Notes under the pieces: generated by a model
The model's input: the letters and a program-made list of their open reading frames with translations, nothing else
Databases searched by the model: none
Told to the model about the DNA's origin: nothing
DNA from: Minisyncoccia bacterium
GTDB taxonomy: Bacteria; Patescibacteriota; Minisyncoccia; Phycocordibacterales; UBA9973
Direction of reading: 5' to 3'
NCBI GenBank assembly: GCA_038251535.1
Contig: JBBSBF010000002.1
Location: 2,220-66,219, forward strand
Length of the DNA stretch: 64,000 bases
Part shown: in pieces, positions 9,624-63,798 of the stretch
Layout of the letters: each line of letters opens with the position of its first letter
How positions within the stretch are numbered: the first letter of the stretch is position 1
Program-made: the position numbers and the translations under genes

Positions 9624-9632
9624 GACGTTCGT

Positions 9633-9732
9633 ATAAAACATAGCAGTTTGCCGTCGCGTAATTTTCTGCTGAAAATTCGCTCCTTCTCAGACCAGTCGTC
9701 TTGCGAAAGACGGCAAACTGCTATGTTTTATA
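9633..9732. repeat. structured repeat element A: a 24-bp perfect inverted repeat enclosing a 52-nt core that contains a cgtctt-GCGA-aagacg hairpin
   Basis: tataaaacatagcagtttgccgtc at 9633-9656 pairs with gacggcaaactgctatgttttata at 9709-9732. A roughly 65-nt core recurs, reverse-complemented, at 40104-40177. Confidence 0.6.
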
Positions 9733-9827
9733 CTCACTTTGTGAAAAGTTGACTAAAATCAGCCTGCAGGGTATTATCTTCCTATAGATGCCCCTGGGGC
9801 GTTTTTTAGTAAGATCAAACAATATCA

Positions 9828-11439: not shown

Positions 11440-11994
11440 TTATCTTGAATATTTAAATATTCTAAACGGATACAAATTTTTCTCATCTATAGGATGATCT
11501 TGCAAGATTTCTGTTTTCCACATACCGAGATAGGCAGGAGGTGTAAATATCGTATCTCCCGCAAACATAGCACTGACAACAGTTGCGTAAATCTTAGAAA
11601 CATGAAAATTGTCACCAGGGGTAAATGATAGTGCTTGAGTGTAGATATCACCACCACCAATGCAAAATACTTTTTTGCCATGACAAACCTTTTCGCGTTT
11701 GAGTAGTCTATAGATTGCATCCCATGAGCTGCATACAAATGTCATCGCGTTTGTTGGGTTGGGTTGGTATAGGTCATTATTGGTCAGAATAATAACCACT
11801 CTTTCAGGTAATCCTTTAGGAAATGACTCGTATGTTTTTCTTCCCACGATACATACACTTCCAGCACCATTTTGTTTTGTAAGAGTTACAAACCAGTGCA
11901 TATCAGCAGGAAGCCACCATGGTATCTTTCCGTCTATTCCGATAACGAAATTTGTGCCATATCCGACAACAATAGATAAATCTATACGTTCCAT
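11440..11994 (-). CDS. folA: dihydrofolate reductase (paralog 1)
   Basis: DHFR motifs VIGIDGKIPW, IVGRKTYESFPKGLPERVVIILT and FCIGGGDIYTQAL. Confidence 0.85.
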   Translation of the reverse strand: MERIDLSIVVGYGTNFVIGIDGKIPWWLPADMHWFVTLTKQNGAGSVCIVGRKTYESFPKGLPERVVIILTNNDLYQPNPTNAMTFVCSSWDAIYRLLKREKVCHGKKVFCIGGGDIYTQALSFTPGDNFHVSKIYATVVSAMFAGDTIFTPPAYLGMWKTEILQDHPIDEKNLYPFRIFKYSR

Positions 11995-12013
11995 AATTTT
12001 TAATTTTCTTTTA

Positions 12014-12040
12014 CATTACTATTTTTGATACTTTTGTCAA
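12014..12040 (-). promoter_or_regulatory. promoter of folA paralog 1 (TTGACA-15 nt-TAATGT, minus strand)
   Basis: The hexamers are read from the sequence. The whole leader is about 85% identical to the leader of folA paralog 2 at 12660-12700. Confidence 0.4.
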
Positions 12041-12097
12041 ATCTGTTTTAAATAAAAAAAGCCGCTCCTCATGGGACGGCTTCTGTGTTGTGTTTCC

Positions 12098-12646
12098 CTA
12101 TGCAGTAAGTAAGTTTTCATATACTTCAACATCAAAATCATGCGAATTACCTTTATCTTTTTCACCACCAGGGACTCTTTTTTTAAAAGGTACCGTCACT
12201 AGGAGTTTATAAATAATTTCATTGTATGAAGGAAAAAATATATCCCCTTCAAATTCACCGTGTACTTTGGTGATATGAAGTTGATCAATAACAATATCTG
12301 GATTATTCAGTGCAAGTGTATATATCTGTGCACCACCAATAATCCAAATGATTTCACCTGATTCCTCTTCTGCTAAATATAAAGCTTGTTCCATAGTGGA
12401 AACATACTTAAAACCTTGCGGCAAACCTTTGGCAAAAGGGTTGTGAGTAATTACAATGTTGGCGCGTCTTGGAAGCGGTTTACCCAAAGATAGTGCTGTA
12501 TTCTTTCCCATAATAACCGGGCAATTAATGGTCTTTGGTTTAAAGTTTAGAAGGAAATCATCAGTAAGATGCCAGTCTGGCATTTGTAAACCGTTTCCCA
12601 TGACATTATTTTTTCCATGGGCAACAATAAGTTTTTTTTTCTTCAT
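12098..12646 (-). CDS. folA: dihydrofolate reductase (paralog 2)
   Basis: DHFR motifs VMGNGLQMPDW, IMGKNTALSLGKPLPRRANIVITHN and WIIGGAQIYTLAL. Confidence 0.8.
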   Translation of the reverse strand: MKKKKLIVAHGKNNVMGNGLQMPDWHLTDDFLLNFKPKTINCPVIMGKNTALSLGKPLPRRANIVITHNPFAKGLPQGFKYVSTMEQALYLAEEESGEIIWIIGGAQIYTLALNNPDIVIDQLHITKVHGEFEGDIFFPSYNEIIYKLLVTVPFKKRVPGGEKDKGNSHDFDVEVYENLLTA

Positions 12647-12771
12647 ATTTTCTATTTTAAATTTTCTTTTACCTTACTATTTTTATATCTTTTGTCAACT
12701 TTGACTTATGTGTAGAAAAGGATAATGTTCACTCAAATAAACAAAATTTCACAACCAAAATTCTTTGAAAA

Positions 12772-14258: not shown

Positions 14259-14262
14259 AACA

Positions 14263-14292
14263 AGGCTGTTGAATGTATCAACAGCCTTTTTA
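14263..14292. terminator. bidirectional rho-independent terminator
   Basis: Perfect 10-bp stem (aggctgttga / tcaacagcct), 5-nt loop and a T-run. Confidence 0.6.
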
Positions 14293-23919: not shown

Positions 23920-26900
23920 ATGTCAATCATCACCCCACAAAATCAAAACCAAAAATCTAACCAAGCACTTCGCCCTGCCGACGCGAAGTCCGCTATGGCG
24001 GGCAGGGAAGAAGCAGTTTTGGCATTCTGGAAAGAAAACGACATTTTCAAAAAGTCGCTTGAGAAAGATGCGCCAAACGGAGAATTTGTTTTTTACGAAG
24101 GTCCTCCAACGGCGAACGCAAAGCCGGCGCTTCACCACCTCGAAGCACGAGCATTTAAGGATGTCTTGCCTCGGTATAAAACGATGCAGGGCTTTCATGT
24201 GCGTCGTCGTGCGGGATGGGATACACACGGACTTCCTGTCGAACTCCAGATCGAAAAGAAACTCGGCTTCACGCACAAAAAACAAATCGAAGAATATGGT
24301 ATCGCAGCATTTAACAAAGAATGCAAAGATAGTGTGTTTACTTTTATTAAAGATTGGGAAGATTTCACCGAACGAATGGGGTACTGGGTAGATAAAAATG
24401 ATGCATACTATACGTTTGATCCATCCTACATGGAGAGTCTCTGGAATATTTTTGCAAAAGTTGATCGAGATGGATTGCTCTACAAAGACTACAAAGTCGT
24501 GCCGTGGTGTCCGCGATGTGGGACGACGCTCGCATCTCACGAACTTGCACAGGGATATCAAGATGATAAAGATTTGAGTGTTATTGCAAAATTCACGCTT
24601 ACTACTCACAGTATTGGATTGCTTCGGTCCTCGGGTCGCGTCGATGGGGCCGCTCAACCAGACACTCACCAATCCAACACTGCTCGTATGTCGCTCCTCG
24701 CATGGACGACAACACCATGGACACTGCCTGGGAATGTGGGATTGGCTGTTGGAAAGGATGTTGAATATATACTCATTCATCAAAATAATGAATTTTTGGT
24801 TCTTGCAAAGAATCGCTTGGAAATAATGAATGGAGGATATGAAATTATTTCCGAATTAAAGGGTTCTGATCTTGTTGGTCTTGAATACGAACCACTATAT
24901 CCCTATCTCGGCGAACTCATCAAAGGTCATCACCAAGAAAAGAATATGCAGAACGCATACAAAGTATATGCTGCGGATTTTGTCACGACCACAGACGGTA
25001 CTGGTATTGTGCACACTGCAGTGATGTATGGAGCCGAGGACTTTGAGCTCGGCACACAGGTGGGACTTCCCAAATTTCATACCGTAGACGCAGAAGGAAA
25101 GTTTGTACAAGGAACTGGATTCCTCGAAGGTCGCTTTGTCAAAGACGAGGAAGTAGCGATCGATATCATCAAAGATCTTGCACATCGCGGACTCTTGTTC
25201 AAAAAAGAAAAGTACGAACACTCATATCCGCATTGTTGGCGCTGCAAGACTCCGCTCATCTACTACGCGCGTGATAGCTGGTATATCGGTATGTCGCAGC
25301 TTCGCGATAAGCTAATGGCTGAAAATGAGCAGATCAACTGGGAACCGTTCCATATCAAGGAAGGACGATTTGGTGAGTGGTTACGCGAAGTGAAAGACTG
25401 GGCGATTTCTCGGGAGCGATATTGGGGGACACCGCTACCGATCTGGCACAACGAACACGATGGAGTACATGATCGCATCGTGGTTGACTCGATCGAGACA
25501 CTTAAAAAATATACAAAGAAATCAGGCAATGAATACTTCGTCATGCGGCATGGACAGTCAGAAGGAAATATTCGGTTAGTAGTCAGCTCACAGGTTACCA
25601 ACAAGGATCCGCTCACCGAGGAGGGTAGAAAACAGGTGTATGCTGCATCGGAACAACTTTCAAATATCGATATGATTGTTGCATCTCCATTTATGCGTAC
25701 CACTGAAACAGCGAAAATCATGGCGGAAAAATACGGTATCGACCCAGAAACAATCGTGTACGACGAACGGCTCGGCGAGATCAATGCAGGTGAGCTCGAA
25801 GGAAAAGAATGGAAGCTCTACCACGAATTTCTCTACGAACACGATCGAGATGAGTGGTATGAGCGTGCGATACCACAAGGAGAATCACTTGCCGATGTTG
25901 CGAGACGTGTTGGAGCTGTACTGTATGATATCGAAAAAACATATAGTAAAAAAAAGATTTTGATCGTAACACATGGCGGCCCAGCGTGGTTATTATATGT
26001 AGTTGCAGGTCAGTACCAACCAAACGGTAAAAACTACACCGTAGTTGATAATCATATTGTTGGAAAAGATTTTAAGTATTTTGATAATGCAGAGATACGA
26101 CCATTGCCGTTTGTGCCATTGCCGCATAATGAAAATTTTGAGCTCGATCTCCATCGTCCGTACATTGATGAGGTAGTACTTGAAAAGGATGGACATGATT
26201 TTCATCGAGTGAAAGAAGTGATGGATGTGTGGTTTGATAGTGGCTCGATGCCGTTTGCTCAGGATCATTATCCCTTTAGTAACAAAGAGCTTTTGTATCC
26301 CGCAGATTTTATTTCAGAAGCGATCGATCAGACGCGTGGATGGTTTTATACCCTCCATGCAGTAGGGACACTCATGGGTAGAGGCCGCGCGTTTAACAAC
26401 GTCATCTGTCTTGGTCACCTTCTCGACAAGGAAGGCAAAAAGATGTCCAAATCGATCGGCAACATAGTTGAACCATTTGCTCAAATAGAAAAGTTTGGCG
26501 TCGATAGCGTGCGTCTCTGGATGTACTCAGTCAACCAACCTGGAGAGAGTAAAAACTATGATGAAAAAACAGTGGGTGAATTACAGCGACAAGTCTTTGG
26601 ACTGCTCAATAACGTCATTGCATTTTATGAACTGTACCGAGATACGTCGATTGAACATATTGTGCCAACGGGAGAGCATGTCCTTGATGCATGGATAGCG
26701 ACGAGACTTGATCAACTTATCAGTTTTGTCACCGAAGAATTGAACCATTACCGTGTCATGCAACCAGTACGAGAAATGCGAGCCTTTATCGAAGACCTCT
26801 CGACATGGTACTTGCGAAGAAGTCGTGATCGAATAAAAGACGGCGATACTGTAGCGAAAGCGACCCTATATCGTGTACTCAAGACGCTCGCGCAAGTCAT

Positions 26901-27495
26901 GGCGCCGTTTGCTCCATTCGCTGCGGAAGATATCTGGCAAAAGCTCCGCCAGGAGGATGATGTCGAAAGTGTGCACTTAAGCGAGTGGCCAAAGGCAATG
27001 GAGATCAGTGACGAATTACTTACCACTATGCAAATAGTAAGAAATATTTGTACTGAAGGTAATGCACTCCGCAAAAAGCTGGGAATTGCAGTGAAGCAAC
27101 CACTTGGGAAGTTTGAAGTTGCAAATATAGACCTTCGAGGTCTCAATTTTAATCTATTGGATAAATATCTCGAACTAATAAAAGAAGAATTGAATGTGAA
27201 AAATGTTGTAGCTGGATCTAAAACAAGTCTCGATACGACTCTTACCTCTGAACTCAAAGCAGAAGGGAACTATCGCGAGCTCGTTCGTGCCGTGCAGGAT
27301 ATGCGCAAGGCAGCAGGACTTGAACCGAGTGATATGGTCAGTATAGGGTTGTCTTCAAACGCACTAGACTTACTAAATCCATTCATCGATGAATTTAAAA
27401 AGACTGTTCAAGCAAGCACTGTAACGTTTGTCGAAAACGATGGTACAGAAGTGAAGATCGATGAATTGAACATACATATTAGTATTGAGAAATAA
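23920..27495 (+). CDS. ileS: isoleucine--tRNA ligase (type 2-like) carrying an inserted histidine-phosphatase domain
   Basis: WTTTPWTLP editing-domain motif, KMSKSIGN, DLHRPYID and DVWFDSGSMPFAQ are present. A roughly 160-180-aa PGM-superfamily module with all its catalytic motifs sits at residues about 538-699. The HIGH position reads ALHH. Confidence 0.9.
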   Translation: MSIITPQNQNQKSNQALRPADAKSAMAGREEAVLAFWKENDIFKKSLEKDAPNGEFVFYEGPPTANAKPALHHLEARAFKDVLPRYKTMQGFHVRRRAGWDTHGLPVELQIEKKLGFTHKKQIEEYGIAAFNKECKDSVFTFIKDWEDFTERMGYWVDKNDAYYTFDPSYMESLWNIFAKVDRDGLLYKDYKVVPWCPRCGTTLASHELAQGYQDDKDLSVIAKFTLTTHSIGLLRSSGRVDGAAQPDTHQSNTARMSLLAWTTTPWTLPGNVGLAVGKDVEYILIHQNNEFLVLAKNRLEIMNGGYEIISELKGSDLVGLEYEPLYPYLGELIKGHHQEKNMQNAYKVYAADFVTTTDGTGIVHTAVMYGAEDFELGTQVGLPKFHTVDAEGKFVQGTGFLEGRFVKDEEVAIDIIKDLAHRGLLFKKEKYEHSYPHCWRCKTPLIYYARDSWYIGMSQLRDKLMAENEQINWEPFHIKEGRFGEWLREVKDWAISRERYWGTPLPIWHNEHDGVHDRIVVDSIETLKKYTKKSGNEYFVMRHGQSEGNIRLVVSSQVTNKDPLTEEGRKQVYAASEQLSNIDMIVASPFMRTTETAKIMAEKYGIDPETIVYDERLGEINAGELEGKEWKLYHEFLYEHDRDEWYERAIPQGESLADVARRVGAVLYDIEKTYSKKKILIVTHGGPAWLLYVVAGQYQPNGKNYTVVDNHIVGKDFKYFDNAEIRPLPFVPLPHNENFELDLHRPYIDEVVLEKDGHDFHRVKEVMDVWFDSGSMPFAQDHYPFSNKELLYPADFISEAIDQTRGWFYTLHAVGTLMGRGRAFNNVICLGHLLDKEGKKMSKSIGNIVEPFAQIEKFGVDSVRLWMYSVNQPGESKNYDEKTVGELQRQVFGLLNNVIAFYELYRDTSIEHIVPTGEHVLDAWIATRLDQLISFVTEELNHYRVMQPVREMRAFIEDLSTWYLRRSRDRIKDGDTVAKATLYRVLKTLAQVMAPFAPFAAEDIWQKLRQEDDVESVHLSEWPKAMEISDELLTTMQIVRNICTEGNALRKKLGIAVKQPLGKFEVANIDLRGLNFNLLDKYLELIKEELNVKNVVAGSKTSLDTTLTSELKAEGNYRELVRAVQDMRKAAGLEPSDMVSIGLSSNALDLLNPFIDEFKKTVQASTVTFVENDGTEVKIDELNIHISIEK
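25531..26016 (+). other. histidine phosphatase (phosphoglycerate-mutase superfamily) domain embedded in ileS
   Basis: RHG motif (FVMRHGQSEGN), RxxETA motif (RTTETAKI), acidic ELEGKEW, and the second His (ILIVTHGGPAW). Confidence 0.7.
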
Positions 27496-37595: not shown

Positions 37596-38120
37596 ATGAA
37601 AGAAGAAGCAACAAACCGGTTGTACGAGTTGGGATATCTTATTACTCCAACCACAACAGAGTCTGATATATCAAAAGAGGTAGATGTATTGAAAACATCA
37701 ATCACTACAATAGAGGGGGAGATCCACAGTGAAGGAAACCCAGAATTCATCGATCTCGCATACACCATAGAAAAGGATGTTGCGAGTAAAAAGATGAAGT
37801 GGAACCAAGCGTATTTTGGCTGGATCAAATTTACCGCAGACCCTGCAACGCTTGAAACGTTGAAAAAAGAGCTTGATGGCAATTTATCCCTGATCAGGTA
37901 TATACTGGTAAAGACAAACGTCGAGAATACGATTGTCTTTAAAAAGCCAAAAGTAGATGCAAAACGTGAAGTGTTTATGAGTGAAGAAGAGTTGGCAGCA
38001 CTTGAGGAAGCAACTGAAGAGTTGGTCGACGAGCCACAGGATGAACATGAAAAGCTTCCGTCCCTTGATATCGAATCATCTACTCCGTTGCCAGTGAAGT
38101 CAGAAGAAAAAGAGGTATAA
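37596..38120 (+). CDS. rpsF: 30S ribosomal protein S6 with an acidic C-terminal extension
   Basis: N-terminal S6 pattern (YELGYLITP...) and its position in the rpsF-ssb-rpsR order. Confidence 0.7.
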   Translation: MKEEATNRLYELGYLITPTTTESDISKEVDVLKTSITTIEGEIHSEGNPEFIDLAYTIEKDVASKKMKWNQAYFGWIKFTADPATLETLKKELDGNLSLIRYILVKTNVENTIVFKKPKVDAKREVFMSEEELAALEEATEELVDEPQDEHEKLPSLDIESSTPLPVKSEEKEV

Positions 38121-38161
38121 TTTTGCTACTTTCTATTTACTACTAACTACTAACTACTTAT

Positions 38162-38647
38162 ATGTATCTCAACAAAGTATTACTCATAGGAAATCTCACT
38201 CGTGATCCAGAATTGAAAGCACTCCCAACCGGGACAAAGGTAACGAGTCTTGCACTTGCGACAAACCGTACCTGGAAAGATCAACAGGGTATGAAGAAGG
38301 AAAGCGTCGAATACCACAACATCGTCGCATTTGCTCGCCAGGCAGAAGTGATCGCACAGTACTGCAAGAAAGGCTCTTCGCTCTATGTCGAAGGGAGACT
38401 ACAGACCAGATCGTGGGATGCTGCTGACGGTGTGAAGAAATACCGTACAGAGATAGTACTCGAAAGCTTTCAGTTCGGACCAAAGACTGGCGGAAGTGAT
38501 ACTTCGTACTCTGGCGGTTCTACGAGCAGTGCGTCTCGTGGATCTACTATCTCTGATGCAGAAGCTCCACAGGCCGATAGTAAACCTGATCTTGATACGA
38601 TCGAATACCCAGACGAAGAGATCAATCTCGAAGATATCCCATTTTAA
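38162..38647 (+). CDS. ssb: single-stranded DNA-binding protein
   Basis: OB-fold SSB signature ([16 protein letters not shown]...), a Gly/Ser-rich tail, and an acidic DIPF C-terminus. Confidence 0.9.
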
Positions 38648-38865: not shown

Positions 38866-38875
38866 GTAAGGTGAT

Positions 38876-38904
38876 AAAAACCCCTCACTATGAGGGGTTT
38901 TTAT
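38876..38904 (+). terminator. rho-independent terminator
   Basis: aaaaacccctcactatgaggggttttt. Confidence 0.7.
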
Positions 38905-39895: not shown

Positions 39896-39977
39896 AGGGA
39901 TTTTTTATATACTTCAAAAACAAAAGTATATTCCTCAAAATACGCGCATAAAAGTCTGGTGACTTTTTGCTATGCTC

Positions 39978-40177
39978 GGACCAGTCGTCCTGCGCAATGT
40001 ATTTTTCGGAACACACTTTTGTTTTTGTCATTCAGTGGTAACGGATCGATTGTAGCGGAAAGGGGATTGAAAGTCCATTTCTTTCTGGAGCGAGAAACCT
40101 CTCTTTTACTGTCTTTCGCAAGACGACTGGTCTGAGAATGAGCGATTTTTCAGCAGAAAAATACGCGACGGTAAAAG
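39978..40177. repeat. structured repeat element B: a reverse-complement copy (about 90% identical) of the element A core plus an inverted partner core
   Basis: 40104-40177 matches the reverse complement of 9651-9718. The forward core cggaccagtcgtcctgcgcaa at 39978-39998 can pair with it across about 110 nt. Confidence 0.6.
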
Positions 40178-40195
40178 AAAGGTTTTGAGTGGAAG

Positions 40196-44972: not shown

Positions 44973-45163
44973 TTTTATTCACTTGATTTTCAAATGAATA
45001 AAAACGATATCGGCCTTGTCGACACGGCAGATACAGCAGCTCGTTACTGCTTTTCTGCGATTAGCTAAACCGTATGGTGCCTCGAGGTGATAAAGACCTT
45101 GGCTCACCGTACACCCGTCACACTCATATATAAGTGCGACGATTACTAACAATTAATCAAATT

Positions 45164-47215
45164 ATGAATAAAATTACAAAATTTATCGTAGGCGCATCTC
45201 TTGCTGCTTTTGCACTCGTTGCATCAGCATCAACAGCTAGTGCTGCTTACATGCACACTGGTCTCCTTAAACAAGGGATGACTAGTTCACAAGTGATGAG
45301 TCTTCAAACGACTTTGAACGCAAGTGGATTCTTGGTTTCTACTACCGGTGCTGGATCTCCAGGAATGGAATCTAGTTACTTTGGTTCAAAGACCAAGGCT
45401 GCTGTTATGGCATTCCAAACAGCAAAAGGTTTGACCGCTGACGGAATCGTCGGTGCTCAGACTGGAACTGCACTCGCTGCAATGACTGGCGGAAGTATGT
45501 CTTACCCAGCAGGTTGTTCATCAACTTCTGGATACAGCACTGTTAACGGTCAGCCTTGCACGATGACTGCTAATTACCCAGTTGGATGTATGTCAAATTC
45601 TGGATACAGCACTACTACAGGGCAACCTTGTACTGGGGCTAGTCTTCCAGCTGGATGTATGTCAACAGCAGGATTCTCTCCAATTTCTGGCGTTTCTTGT
45701 TCTACTGGAGGTTCGTCTAACGGCGCACTTTCTGGTTCAACTGGAAACATTAGTTCTTACAGTCTCCTTTCTTCAGTTGACAACCAAGTTGGCGAAGGAA
45801 ACACTGACAAGAAAGTTGTTGGCGTTGAAATCAAAGCAGATGCAGGTTCAGACCTCAACATCTCTGCGATGCGCGTAACTTTCAAGAACACTAACTCTCC
45901 AAGTTCATCAAAGCGATTTGATCGATACGCAAAGACAGTGTCAGTATGGGCAGGTAGTACAAAGGTTGGATCAGCAAGTATTTCTGATTTCTCAGAAGAC
46001 TCTGGTCTCTACACAAAGACTATCAACCTCTCAGGTGCAACTGTAAAGGCTGACCAAAAGAGCCAATTTTACGTAACTGTTGATGCAGTAAGTAACATTG
46101 ATTCAGGTGACTTTACAAACACATTCGTTGCAACGATCGACAATGCTCGTTTCAACGATGCGTCTGGAGCTATCTTGACTGAAACTTTCTCAAGTCCGAC
46201 AATTACAAAGACCTTTAGTTTCGTGTCACTTGCAACTGCAAATGACCTCGAACTCAAAGTCAATCTTGCGTCTGACAACATGAAAGCTACAACAGTTAAA
46301 GTTTCTACCACTTCAAACACTAACAACGTGCAACTCTTGAAGTTCACCGTTAAGGCACAAGGTGGAAAGATGCACATTGATCAAATCCCAGTGTATTTCG
46401 CTGCTAGTACCGCACTTAGTGAGGTTACTGGAAACGTAACATTGAAAATCAATGGCGACACCTTTACAGAAACGATTGCTTCAACAACAGCAACTGGTGC
46501 AACGATCACGTTTGACAACCTCAGCTTTGATATCAGTGCAGACGATACCGTTACTGGTACAGTCTACGCAGACATCAACGACATCGAAGTACCTTACTTC
46601 AACCAAGGTGACACGCTCAAAGCGTCTATCACTTCTAGTGAAGTAGCGGTCATCGATGCTGAGGACGCCAATGGCGACAACATCCAGTCTGGAGACCGTT
46701 CAGGTTCTGCAGTTGGTGAAGTTATGACATTCCGTTCAACTGGAGTTAACGCAGTGATGGGCGATGCGTCTATCACTCGTGACACCGACCAAAATGGTAA
46801 TATCGTTCAGGTTCACTACAGTATTCCTGTATCTGTAACTTCATTCGGTAATACTCTTTACCTCGGACAGTCAGCACAGCTTGCTGCTACTGCAACTGGA
46901 TCAAACGCTTTTGCTCTCGTTTACGAGGCTTCAAGCGCTGGTTCTACACCAGTAGTAGGTGGAACTTCTAGTATCACTCTTTCATCTTCTGATTCATCGA
47001 TTGATACAAACGGATTCCGTCTTGACGATGGTCAGACTAAGCACTTCACGATCACTGTAAACCTCATTGATCCTGCAACTGCTAGTACTTCATATCGTGT
47101 TCACCTCGATCAGATCCGAACATTCACTGACGCTCTCCTCACTGCAGGTGCAGCTAACAGTGACTTGCTCCCTATCGAGTCATACCGAACTAACTACCAA
47201 TTGATCAATAGCTAA
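45164..47215 (+). CDS. secreted Ser/Thr-rich surface protein with an N-terminal peptidoglycan-binding domain and three tandem 2-Cys repeats
   Basis: Signal peptide, a PG_binding_1-like motif (MSLQTTLNASGF...AAVMAFQTAKGLTADGIVGAQT), three repeats GC[SM]S.SG[YF]S...G.PC, then beta-rich Thr/Ser domains. The ORF tool starts it at 45134. Confidence 0.6.
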   Translation: MNKITKFIVGASLAAFALVASASTASAAYMHTGLLKQGMTSSQVMSLQTTLNASGFLVSTTGAGSPGMESSYFGSKTKAAVMAFQTAKGLTADGIVGAQTGTALAAMTGGSMSYPAGCSSTSGYSTVNGQPCTMTANYPVGCMSNSGYSTTTGQPCTGASLPAGCMSTAGFSPISGVSCSTGGSSNGALSGSTGNISSYSLLSSVDNQVGEGNTDKKVVGVEIKADAGSDLNISAMRVTFKNTNSPSSSKRFDRYAKTVSVWAGSTKVGSASISDFSEDSGLYTKTINLSGATVKADQKSQFYVTVDAVSNIDSGDFTNTFVATIDNARFNDASGAILTETFSSPTITKTFSFVSLATANDLELKVNLASDNMKATTVKVSTTSNTNNVQLLKFTVKAQGGKMHIDQIPVYFAASTALSEVTGNVTLKINGDTFTETIASTTATGATITFDNLSFDISADDTVTGTVYADINDIEVPYFNQGDTLKASITSSEVAVIDAEDANGDNIQSGDRSGSAVGEVMTFRSTGVNAVMGDASITRDTDQNGNIVQVHYSIPVSVTSFGNTLYLGQSAQLAATATGSNAFALVYEASSAGSTPVVGGTSSITLSSSDSSIDTNGFRLDDGQTKHFTITVNLIDPATASTSYRVHLDQIRTFTDALLTAGAANSDLLPIESYRTNYQLINS

Positions 47216-47251
47216 TCGCTATCTGTCAGTTAGGTATACGTTCCTAATGGC

Positions 47252-47286
47252 AAAAAACCTCCCTATATGGGAGGTTTTTTGTTTTT
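47252..47286 (+). terminator. rho-independent terminator
   Basis: aaaaaacctccctatatgggaggttttttg. Confidence 0.7.
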
Positions 47287-56079: not shown

Positions 56080-56099
56080 AATATCACCGTACGTTGATA

Positions 56100-56132
56100 G
56101 AAAAACACCCTCTGTTACAGAGGGTGTTTTTC
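56100..56132 (+). terminator. rho-independent terminator
   Basis: 10-bp stem (acaccctctg / cagagggtgt), 3-nt loop and a T-run. Confidence 0.7.
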
Positions 56133-56150
56133 TTGGTGTATACTCCTGAC

Positions 56151-57129: not shown

Positions 57130-57621
57130 ATGGCAATCACAAAAGATAAAAAAGTCTCTATCGTTGCCTCATTTGCTGACATGCTCAAGGATGCGCAATC
57201 AGTCGCATTTGTGCAATTTAGCAAGCTCACGGTAAAGGACGCCAATGCGCTCCGACGCAGCTTGCGTAGCGAGGGTATCACGTACAAAGTAGGAAAAAAG
57301 ACCCTACTCAAGCGTGTGCTCAGCGATATGGGCATTGTAGGTACACTCCCCGCACTCGAAGGCGAAATCGCGATAGCGGCAAGTACGGACCTTTTAGCTC
57401 CTGCACGAGTTGTGTATGAGTTCCAAAAAACGCACAAAGACATGATCACTCTTGTCGGAGGTATTTTTGAAGGAGCGTACAAGGACAAAGAAAGCATGAC
57501 CATGATTGCAACGATTCCTCCACGGGAAGTGTTGCTCTCGCAAATTGCCTACTTACTCAAGAGTCCGATGCAGCGTCTCGCTATTGCGGTCAACGAAGTC
57601 TCAAAAACAAAAAATGCGTAA
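57130..57621 (+). CDS. rplJ: 50S ribosomal protein L10
   Basis: L10 signature, directly upstream of rplL. Confidence 0.9.
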   Translation: MAITKDKKVSIVASFADMLKDAQSVAFVQFSKLTVKDANALRRSLRSEGITYKVGKKTLLKRVLSDMGIVGTLPALEGEIAIAASTDLLAPARVVYEFQKTHKDMITLVGGIFEGAYKDKESMTMIATIPPREVLLSQIAYLLKSPMQRLAIAVNEVSKTKNA

Positions 57622-57665
57622 GCATGGTACTCCTTACTATTTACTACTAACTACTAACTAATTAT

Positions 57666-58028
57666 ATGGCAACATTTGACAAATTTCTCACCGAACTCGA
57701 AGGAGCTTCAGTGATTGAACTAAACGATTTGGTAAAGGCGATCGAGGAAAAATTTGGTGTTTCAGCAGCTGCAGTTTCTGCAGCCCCTGCTGCGGCAGCA
57801 GGTCCTGTTGAAGAAAAAGACAGCTTTACTGTTGTGCTTGCTTCTGCAGGGGAACAGAAAATCGCCGTGATGAAGGCGGTGAAGGAAGCACTTGGGTTGG
57901 GTCTCAAGGAGGCAAAAGACCTCGTTGATGGCGCACCAGCGACCCTCAAGGACGGTATGAAGAAAGACGAAGCAGAAGCCCTCAAGAAATCTATCGAGGA
58001 GGCGGGTGGGAAGATCGAATTGAAATAA
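57666..58028 (+). CDS. rplL: 50S ribosomal protein L7/L12
   Basis: Ala-rich hinge and a conserved C-terminal domain ([25 protein letters not shown]...). Confidence 0.95.
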
Positions 58029-58050
58029 TTCAAAGTATTTCATGCGCACA

Positions 58051-58079
58051 AAAAACTCCGATTATTCGGAGTTTTTTTG
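58051..58079 (+). terminator. rho-independent terminator
   Basis: aactccg-attatt-cggagtt followed by T7. Confidence 0.7.
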
Positions 58080-62443: not shown

Positions 62444-62580
62444 AGTAAATTTCAAACACCTCACTATCGAAAACAAAGCACCCGAACGGGTGCTTTGTTA
62501 TTTGGGTCTATATCATACGGATGGTTGACATTTTATACTTTGTACTATATAATAATCCCAAACATTTTAAAACTTTAAAA

Positions 62581-63684: not shown

Positions 63685-63798
63685 TAAAAGATATAGCCCA
63701 CAACTACAATGTTGTGGGCTATTTTTATATTCTAAACACTGATTTGGACACCGCAATCATTGGGAGTATACTCTCTATATCCGTAAGTGGAAAAAGAA

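Follow-up and report, generated by a model that had tools for sequence, protein, structure and literature searches.

Copies of an apparently undescribed T-shaped palindromic repeat are interspersed in genomes of Patescibacteria

What is the long, perfect palindrome that lies between a SIMPL-domain gene and secE in this contig: a structured RNA, a mobile hairpin, or a terminator? We analyzed a stretch of 64,000 nucleotides (the window), in which the original prediction had singled out a 24-bp perfect stem around a 52-nt core. The pairing is indeed perfect and the core is there, but both are slightly longer than predicted, since the two 25-nt arms of the outer stem P1 (positions 9631 to 9655 and 9709 to 9733, plus strand) are 100% complementary and have 53 nt between them. 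The chance expectation for such a 25-nt perfect inverted repeat in 64 kb is ∼6e-9. The whole element, copy A (103 nt, 9631 to 9733, plus strand), scores 85 bits with our covariance model R1 and has RNA folding energies of -54.7 and -58.7 kcal/mol on the two strands (z of about -10.5 versus shuffled controls), with a z of about -10.6 versus shuffles for the DNA fold. The comparison of fold energy with shuffled controls, proposed as a check, thus comes out far in favor of the natural sequence on both strands.

The single strand folds into a T shape, in which P1 carries a cap formed by a three-way junction with two hairpins, P2 and P3. P2 (9656 to 9680, plus strand) consists of gcg, a bulged t, aatttt, the loop ctgctg, aaaatt, and cgc, and corresponds to the imperfect inner stem seen originally. 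P3 (9684 to 9707, plus strand) has a lower stem ttc/gaa, an internal loop of tc opposite t-g-c, an upper stem agac/gtct, and the loop cagtc. A GNRA-capped hairpin, cgtctt-gcga-aagacg, had also been proposed, and the sequence is present (9697 to 9712); as a conserved feature it was rejected, because it is impossible in most relatives, is limited to the subfamily of copies A, B, L128, and L141, and competes with P1, with which its 3′ strand has gacg (9709 to 9712) in common. It is missing from the minimum-energy folds and from every predicted fold.

Copy A starts 7 nt past the stop codon of the SIMPL-domain gene (9623) and is followed after 15 nt by a promoter-like site of the secE-nusG unit (TTGACT-17-TATTAT, 9749 to 9777, plus strand), which lies outside the element and is kept in the relatives L150, L152, L154, and L155. 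Its 5′ arm starts A-rich (ATAAAACATAGC), as host terminators do, and its 3′ arm has a T-rich end (gctatgttttatac). Beyond the promoter-like site, a hairpin with a T run (gcccctggggcgtttttt, 9790 to 9807) is found ∼20 nt 5′ of the secE ATG (9828). The same layout of promoter, hairpin, and T run (9749 to 9807 in the window) precedes secE in the four relatives, and it may be a leader or attenuator of the secE-nusG unit or a tiny RNA.

A second copy with about 90% identity had been predicted and is present: positions 40105 to 40175 are 92% identical over 71 nt to the reverse complement of 9647 to 9717, and a 24-nt core word has only one other match in the window, with one mismatch, at 40109 to 40132 on the minus strand (0 expected). 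This copy B (91 nt, 40095 to 40185, minus strand, 82 bits) lies directly past the recA stop codon (40196) in the orientation of recA. Its outer stem, predicted to pair despite its different sequence, does so over 19 bp with two mismatches (40095 to 40113 with 40167 to 40185). A third copy, C (113 nt, 39915 to 40027, plus strand, 65 bits), had been overlooked; it has the same core as A and B but is decayed, with 29-nt arms that are 86% complementary and form 25 Watson-Crick pairs. B and C converge as a pair between recA and efp. The spacer of this doublet (40028 to 40094, minus strand) contains the 3′ flank motif of copy B (ctcgctcc, 40087 to 40094, where the plus strand reads ggagcgag) and a promoter-like site of efp (TGGACT-17-TACAAT, 40077 to 40049), so that copy C sits in the efp leader, antisense, between the promoter and the efp start. 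The spacer is alignable with that of the relative L156, in which an orthologue of copy B is present.

To survey the family we searched related Patescibacteria contigs with exact patterns, then with a fuzzy pattern, and finally with covariance model R1. An exact 16-mer proved too short a word for representative genomes, with ∼115 of 119 matches arising by chance in high-GC genomes and real copies only in L019, L021, L031, and L097, which are metagenome-assembled genomes labeled Candidatus Saccharibacteria or uncultured bacterium. A more specific core pattern returned 29 metagenome loci, for which gene calls are simple open reading frame calls, and syntenic loci were fetched via NusG, EF-P, and YchF homologues. 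R1 mapped ∼90 matches, the first 80 of them (53 distinct) within 282 kb of loci and the further ones in the syntenic loci. The core search and the covariance model that had been suggested as checks thus both yielded a family of related copies. Because all copies outside the window were found from exact core words, the diversity of the family is wider than the sample. The suggested comparison with Rfam returned no family: Rfam 15 gave no match in the window at the gathering score and nothing relevant around A or B/C at E values up to 10.

The copies are non-coding, interspersed, and ∼85 to 120 nt long. The genomes that bear them are labeled Paceibacterota, Pacebacteria, or "Saccharibacteria" by their submitters, and homologues of the flanking proteins carry the labels Pacebacteria, Paceibacterota, Yanofskybacteria, or Patescibacteria. 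Genes beside copies are housekeeping genes (PolA, Fpg, YchF, S1, RecA, and NusG). Related genomes vary about tenfold in density, with 3 copies in the 64-kb window and 6 within 12 kb of L142; in dense genomes the copies are regularly spaced and all lie between open reading frames, and in some members the family makes up a large share of the intergenic regions. No copy was found in the viral contigs, phage records, and plasmid records searched, and the 64-kb window contains no tRNA or tmRNA gene. A literature search on the core word and on palindromic repeats, MITEs, and REPs of CPR/Saccharibacteria found no description of the family, which is apparently so far undescribed.

The fold is supported by covariation throughout the cap. 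P2 follows the pattern of 3 bp, a bulged T, 5 to 6 bp, and a CTRCTG loop, while P3 has a lower stem of 3 to 5 bp, an internal loop of TC and TSC, a 4-bp upper stem, and a C(A)GTC loop. The upper stem is RGAC/GTCY in the window, with R and Y covarying in the conserved fold RGAC-C(A)GTC-GTCY, and CGC/GCG, GCCT/AGGC, or GATT/AATC elsewhere. By pair counts, with support from RNAalifold, pairing reaches 92% in P2 and 97.6% in upper P3, whereas control partners slid along the alignment pair at ∼45%. Double changes occur at all nine pairs of P2, and doubly changed cells number 255 versus 75 ± 8 in column shuffles, none of 500 shuffles reaching 255. Pairing kept under sequence change, originally read from two copies, therefore extends to many, with 92 to 98% pairing in P2 and upper P3. 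About 16 unpaired positions in the loops and the internal loop are nearly invariant. In some copies (L125 385 to 474, L142 567 to 682, and L140 1927 to 1980), this plan is expanded at fixed points by insertions of variable length, either an extra 47-nt hairpin (aaagcgattctagtcgg..ccgactaagaaacttcgctt) just 5′ of P3 or a bigger P2 (cctgcctgccggcaggcagg).

A compact three-way junction with such covariation, nearly invariant unpaired bases, and many copies could be a structured small RNA that is active by itself, whether it acts in trans or is a new ribozyme that cleaves itself and rides on a repeated element, as hammerhead and twister ribozymes do. We consider this very unlikely: no Rfam family matches even at E values up to 10, copies A and B/C have no promoter of their own within the element, pairing is Watson-Crick only, and the P2 loop is TTGATA in the orthologous L156 copy. 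A perfect 25- to 32-bp stem is unusual in ribozymes, and RNase III would be expected to act on it. Two more specific ideas were discarded. The hammerhead-like reading of CTGCTGA...GAAA fails because the motif lies within a hairpin loop and matches no Rfam model, and kissing between CUG in the P2 loop and CAG in the P3 loop fails because many copies with a CGTC loop lack the matching change in P2.

The arms behave differently from the cap. P1 typically spans 19 to 32 bp, although some copies have a shorter or interrupted stem, and its sequence is copy-specific, identical cores occurring with different arms; it is almost purely Watson-Crick, at 957 of 999 positions in 46 distinct arm pairs. G-T pairs account for only 9 of these 999 positions versus 9 of 195 (4.6%) in the ordinary terminators of the host (Fisher p = 9e-4), and in P2 and upper P3, too, G-U is limited to ∼1% of cells. 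Mismatches are distributed asymmetrically between the strands, A-C mismatches exceeding G-U by 17:9 on the sense strand and by 10:3 on the strand predicted as transcribed. The scarcity of G-U and the excess of A-C in predicted transcripts argue for folding at the DNA level rather than for a classical RNA gene, and selection at the RNA level on the transcribed strand was rejected on this ground. One arm differs at four adjacent positions, each of them compensated in the partner arm (TTTT/AAAA to CCCC/GGGG). Point changes that arise singly and are then selected can hardly account for this, but copying or conversion from arm to arm can. Arms acting as guides to other DNA were also considered and rejected, the matches elsewhere in the window being merely chance 10- to 11-mers.

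Watson-Crick-only pairing would also suit a site on double-stranded or cruciform DNA for a nucleoid, gyrase, or replication protein, without mobility of its own, since such pairing holds for both strands. The intergenic, regular spacing of copies in dense genomes fits such a site, and the pairing of copies from two subtypes is reminiscent of the Y and Z units in BIMEs, elements that in E. coli are bound by gyrase and IHF. We nevertheless regard it as improbable. Within a single genome, P2 and P3 half-sites vary widely from one subtype to another, so that what is conserved is the shape of the hairpins and not a double-strand binding sequence, making a sequence-specific binder unlikely. Extrusion of a cruciform over a 53-nt center is kinetically unfavorable, and both the strand asymmetry of the mismatches and the density gap between the window and L142 (1 copy per 2 kb) speak against a structural site of this kind.

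Position brings in the most serious rival. Copies usually lie directly 3′ of stop codons or in convergent pairs, which are frequent, 110 to 190 nt apart, and made of two unlike core subtypes; from whichever side each such pair is approached, the copy reached first is sense. Single copies between codirectional genes are sense in nine cases and antisense in two (one-sided p = 0.03). Other copies are found between divergent genes, inside the FtsX-ABC operon (L150), and antisense in the efp 5′ untranslated region (copy C). Copies A and B are both sense and follow a stop codon ahead of the next promoter, where terminators are expected. The ordinary terminators of this host are perfect palindromes with an A tract, a 7- to 17-bp stem, a 1- to 8-nt loop, and a T tract (14262 to 14288, 38874 to 38904, 47251 to 47281, 56099 to 56133, 58050 to 58077, 62472 to 62499, and 63693 to 63722); many can be read in both directions, and G-T pairs occur only in one-directional ones. 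The outer ends of copy arms resemble these bidirectional terminators. A terminator consensus scan made no call at A or B/C, and many arms lack a proper U tract directly past the stem; as the arms end T-rich like host terminators, the element may nonetheless act in a terminator-like way. The original statement that the element is not a simple terminator is therefore only half right, given the likeness of the arms and the positions of A and B.

These observations fit a cis-acting RNA selected by the host, a lineage-specific terminator, insulator, or 3′-end-protecting hairpin whose cap binds a host RNA-binding factor. Copies would come from occasional duplication and be kept as punctuation of transcription units, with convergent pairs stopping transcripts from both sides. 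The sense bias and the positions directly past stop codons fit an RNA role equally well as they fit a mobile hairpin, and a plain terminator occupies the place of the B/C pair in the relative L157 (AAAAAAGTCTGTTGG-aaat-CCAACAGACTTTTT). Orthologous copies, moreover, keep their fold although arms and P2 have changed almost wholly (window B versus L156, and L142 versus L160), and this compensated change at copies that stay put, which counts against a mobile hairpin, could alternatively reflect host selection on structure. We hold such an RNA to be a possible but rather unlikely explanation, because its pairing has far fewer G-U pairs than that of ordinary host terminators and more A-C than G-U mismatches in predicted transcripts, and because neither A nor B is called as a terminator. 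Copies between divergent genes, in an antisense 5′ untranslated region, or inside an operon fit it poorly as well, and a strong terminator within FtsX-ABC would be polar.

Comparison of orthologous sites shows presence and absence of copies between relatives. The spacer between the SIMPL-domain gene and secE has no copy in L154 and L155, where 14 nt separate the stop codon from the promoter, nor in L152 and L150, where the spacer sequence is another. At the FtsX-ABC junction, L150 has a copy with flanks, ∼132 nt, where the window reads TAAttATG and L152 reads TAAacttgtATG. The TatD-MetRS spacer carries a copy in L156 and none in the window, and the recA-efp spacer has an orthologous pair in the window and L156. 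Copies missing from orthologous sites in some relatives and present at others in them have thus been gained and lost. The relatives are only 88 to 92% identical in NusG or EF-P (90 to 92% for NusG of L150, L152, L154, and L155 versus that of the window), so that insertion and deletion are indistinguishable and the ends of the element cannot be fixed from these sites. L139 and L124 differ by ∼163 nt, one copy plus spacer, with fuzzy ends as the flanks are ∼83% identical. Of the two options offered originally, a conserved RNA structure or a MITE-like mobile hairpin, the second has the better support, from presence or absence at orthologous sites and from a density of up to 6 copies within 12 kb of one relative; the mismatch pattern of the pairs speaks against a classical RNA structure on one strand.

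The copy of L150 (at 8053) shares the arm imperfections of window copy C (TTCCTCRAAA / TTTYTCGGAAC) at a different locus, which indicates that arms travel with the cap. We had considered that the cap alone inserts into preexisting host terminators, an idea that drew on the arm-like host terminators and on the plain L157 terminator at the recA site. At the sites that allowed a comparison this idea was not upheld, since the empty sites of copy A and of the L150 copy have no hairpin and the L150 arms share the imperfections of copy C.

Strain-level pairs (L142 versus L159 and L138 versus L145) show deletions between copies and no clean insertions. One runs from a copy into its convergent partner over ∼530 nt (L142 6290 to 7200 versus L159 5465 to 5840) and another does the same over ∼97 nt (L138 4805 to 4960 versus L145 7716 to 7940), which makes these repeats rearrangement hot spots.

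A pyrimidine motif often accompanies the stem, in the form 5′ ..CTC | stem .. stem | TCG.. 3′, often extended to (T)CGCTC on both sides. In A, L128, L127, and L021 it marks the P1 base, and in window C, L150, L031, and L147 it makes up an internal loop 4 to 7 bp from the cap. TC stands on both sides at the first pairing break in 10 of 55 distinct copies versus ∼0.2 expected. The flanks ..CGCTC| and |TCGCT.. recur as similar, non-identical sequences around one copy, and in copy A they appear as the variants acgttc (9625 to 9630, plus strand) and tcactt (9734 to 9739, plus strand). No clean target-site duplication can be defined from the copy flanks, and the genomes with empty sites have diverged too far for the ends to be placed.

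Taken together, our leading explanation, to which we give about even credence, is that the family is a mobile hairpin of the REP/MITE type, non-autonomous and folded in single-stranded form. A putative trans-acting protein, with no gene nearby, would recognize it by the invariant unpaired bases of the cap and by the pyrimidine motif. Perfect hairpins would arise and persist at the level of DNA, by single-strand folding and arm-to-arm templating or conversion, and not by selection on one RNA strand. By imitating the A-tract/stem/T-tract bidirectional terminators of the host, the arms would let the element settle at boundaries of transcription units, often as a convergent pair of two unlike subtypes; there it would be harmless, probably doubling as a terminator or insulator hairpin. 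This reading and the host terminator are compatible, since co-option can turn a mobile hairpin into a terminator. Candidate machinery was sought without success: the window genes scanned with Pfam include no transposase, integrase, or reverse transcriptase, no IS200/IS608-like TnpA matches in ∼370 kb of loci, and no autonomous parent element turned up in genome, metagenome, viral, phage, and plasmid searches.

We also entertain, as a speculative and doubtful idea, that the cap with the pyrimidine motif is the site of a new CPR system for mobilization or homogenization of single-stranded DNA or, alternatively, that the cap is a new protein-binding or catalytic RNA module. If the former were true, one arm would be copied from the other, every new hairpin would be perfect, and tiny genomes would be seeded with portable bidirectional terminators. 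If the latter were true, the lineage would have its own way of ending transcripts.

Several other features of the window and its relatives were recorded. Repeats of the ACTAACTACTAACTA type lie directly 5′ of start codons in the window (38107 to 38164, with the ssb ATG at 38162, and 57611 to 57668), and in L150 (9659 to 9735) the SIMPL-secE spacer is taken up by a palindromic form of them, TAGTAG/CTACTA, at the place of window copy A; they are a second repeat family or a leader motif. The isoleucyl-tRNA synthetase gene (23920 to 27495) contains an inserted His_Phos_1 (histidine-phosphatase) domain at amino acids 540 to 711, an architecture also present in the annotation of L152. Two tandem DHFR genes (11440 to 11994 and 12098 to 12646, minus strand) have upstream 55-nt segments that are 82% identical (11996 to 12050 and 12654 to 12708), and L150, L152, and L154 have a single DHFR gene at this site. 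A reverse transcriptase gene (RVT_1, 353 amino acids) lies 5′ of SelR in the close relative L154 (1888 to 2949), whereas neither the window nor L152 has one there. The gene may be part of a diversity-generating retroelement, a retron, or a group II intron. Three tandem repeats of 69 to 72 nt (45497 to 45674) occur within the gene of a peptidoglycan-binding-domain protein (45134 to 47215).

Among known systems, parvovirus inverted terminal repeats resemble the family in shape only, with a long stem capped by two small hairpins and with GCTC-type motifs adjoining the stem, which in AAV belong to the Rep-binding element. Those repeats are the ends of linear single-stranded DNA genomes, carry GAGC repeats inside the stem, and exist in flip and flop forms, whereas copies of the family are chromosomal and their cap has a fixed orientation relative to the flank motif. 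Integron attC sites share structure kept over varying stem sequence and recognition, proposed for the family, as folded single-stranded DNA, and large attC tips can branch. They differ in having R″/R′ boxes (GTTRRRY), extrahelical bases, and same-orientation arrays beside intI with one site per cassette, while the family has no GTTRRRY at the stem base, perfect arms, copies that face each other, and no integrase in the window. IS200/IS605-derived PATEs have two subterminal hairpins, insert 3′ of a fixed tetra- or pentanucleotide with no duplication, and have a TnpA in the genome. The likeness is that P2, with its bulged T, and P3 could act as the two hairpins and that the 5′ flank often ends in CGCTC, but no TnpA was found in ∼370 kb of loci and complementary linkers are not a PATE feature.

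Host intrinsic terminators share the A tract, perfect stem, T tract, Watson-Crick pairs, and position right past stop codons. An intrinsic terminator has a G+C-rich stem, a short loop, and a direct U run; in the family the "loop" is a 53-nt structured cap in place of 1 to 8 nt, stems are 19 to 32 bp versus 7 to 17 bp, many copies have no clean U tract, and copies also occur in non-terminator places. Hairpin MITEs (Correia/NEMIS of Neisseria, ERIC, RUP, BOX, and Nezha), of which the Correia type is closest in size, are like the family small (∼100 to 150 bp), non-coding, intergenic, provided with long inverted arms, and polymorphic in presence between relatives; cotranscription with neighboring genes, predicted for the family, is a further likeness. 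In MITEs, however, the terminal repeats are conserved, matching a parent insertion sequence, and the center varies. The reverse holds for the family, which counts against its being an ordinary mobile hairpin, and its internal hairpins covary, with no constant target duplication (such as TA) or parent insertion sequence found.

The closest systems in lifestyle are the REP/BIME/REPIN elements of proteobacteria, which are mobilized in trans by RAYT, a Y1 HUH transposase; for the family, too, we propose mobilization in trans, by a putative protein. Both are extragenic palindromes of many copies, dense between housekeeping genes and mostly past gene ends, both form inverted pairs of two unlike subtypes (BIME Y/Z), and both combine single-strand folding with rearrangement hot spots. 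Genomes with REPs carry a cognate RAYT gene flanked by the repeats; no RAYT was found by Pfam in the window and no IS200/IS608-like match in ∼370 kb of loci. A REP is a simple hairpin of 20 to 40 nt, an imperfect palindrome with a conserved 5′ GTAG, whereas the unit here is ∼100 nt with a three-way-junction cap, has no 5′ GTAG, combines a copy-specific stem with a conserved cap, and belongs to a different host phylum. The traits of the family that are unusual are its conserved three-way-junction cap, hypervariable perfect arms, and terminator mimicry, and together they offer a handle on the punctuation of transcription units, the upkeep of palindromes, and a reader protein of a T-shaped strand. 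Genomes of CPR/Patescibacteria are minimal, and mobile DNA and known regulatory RNAs are usually described as scarce in them; in these lineages, known from metagenomes only, the family is a marker for strain typing and for rearrangement breakpoints. Even if it were an ordinary selfish repeat, it would broaden REP/MITE biology by one phylum and one architecture.
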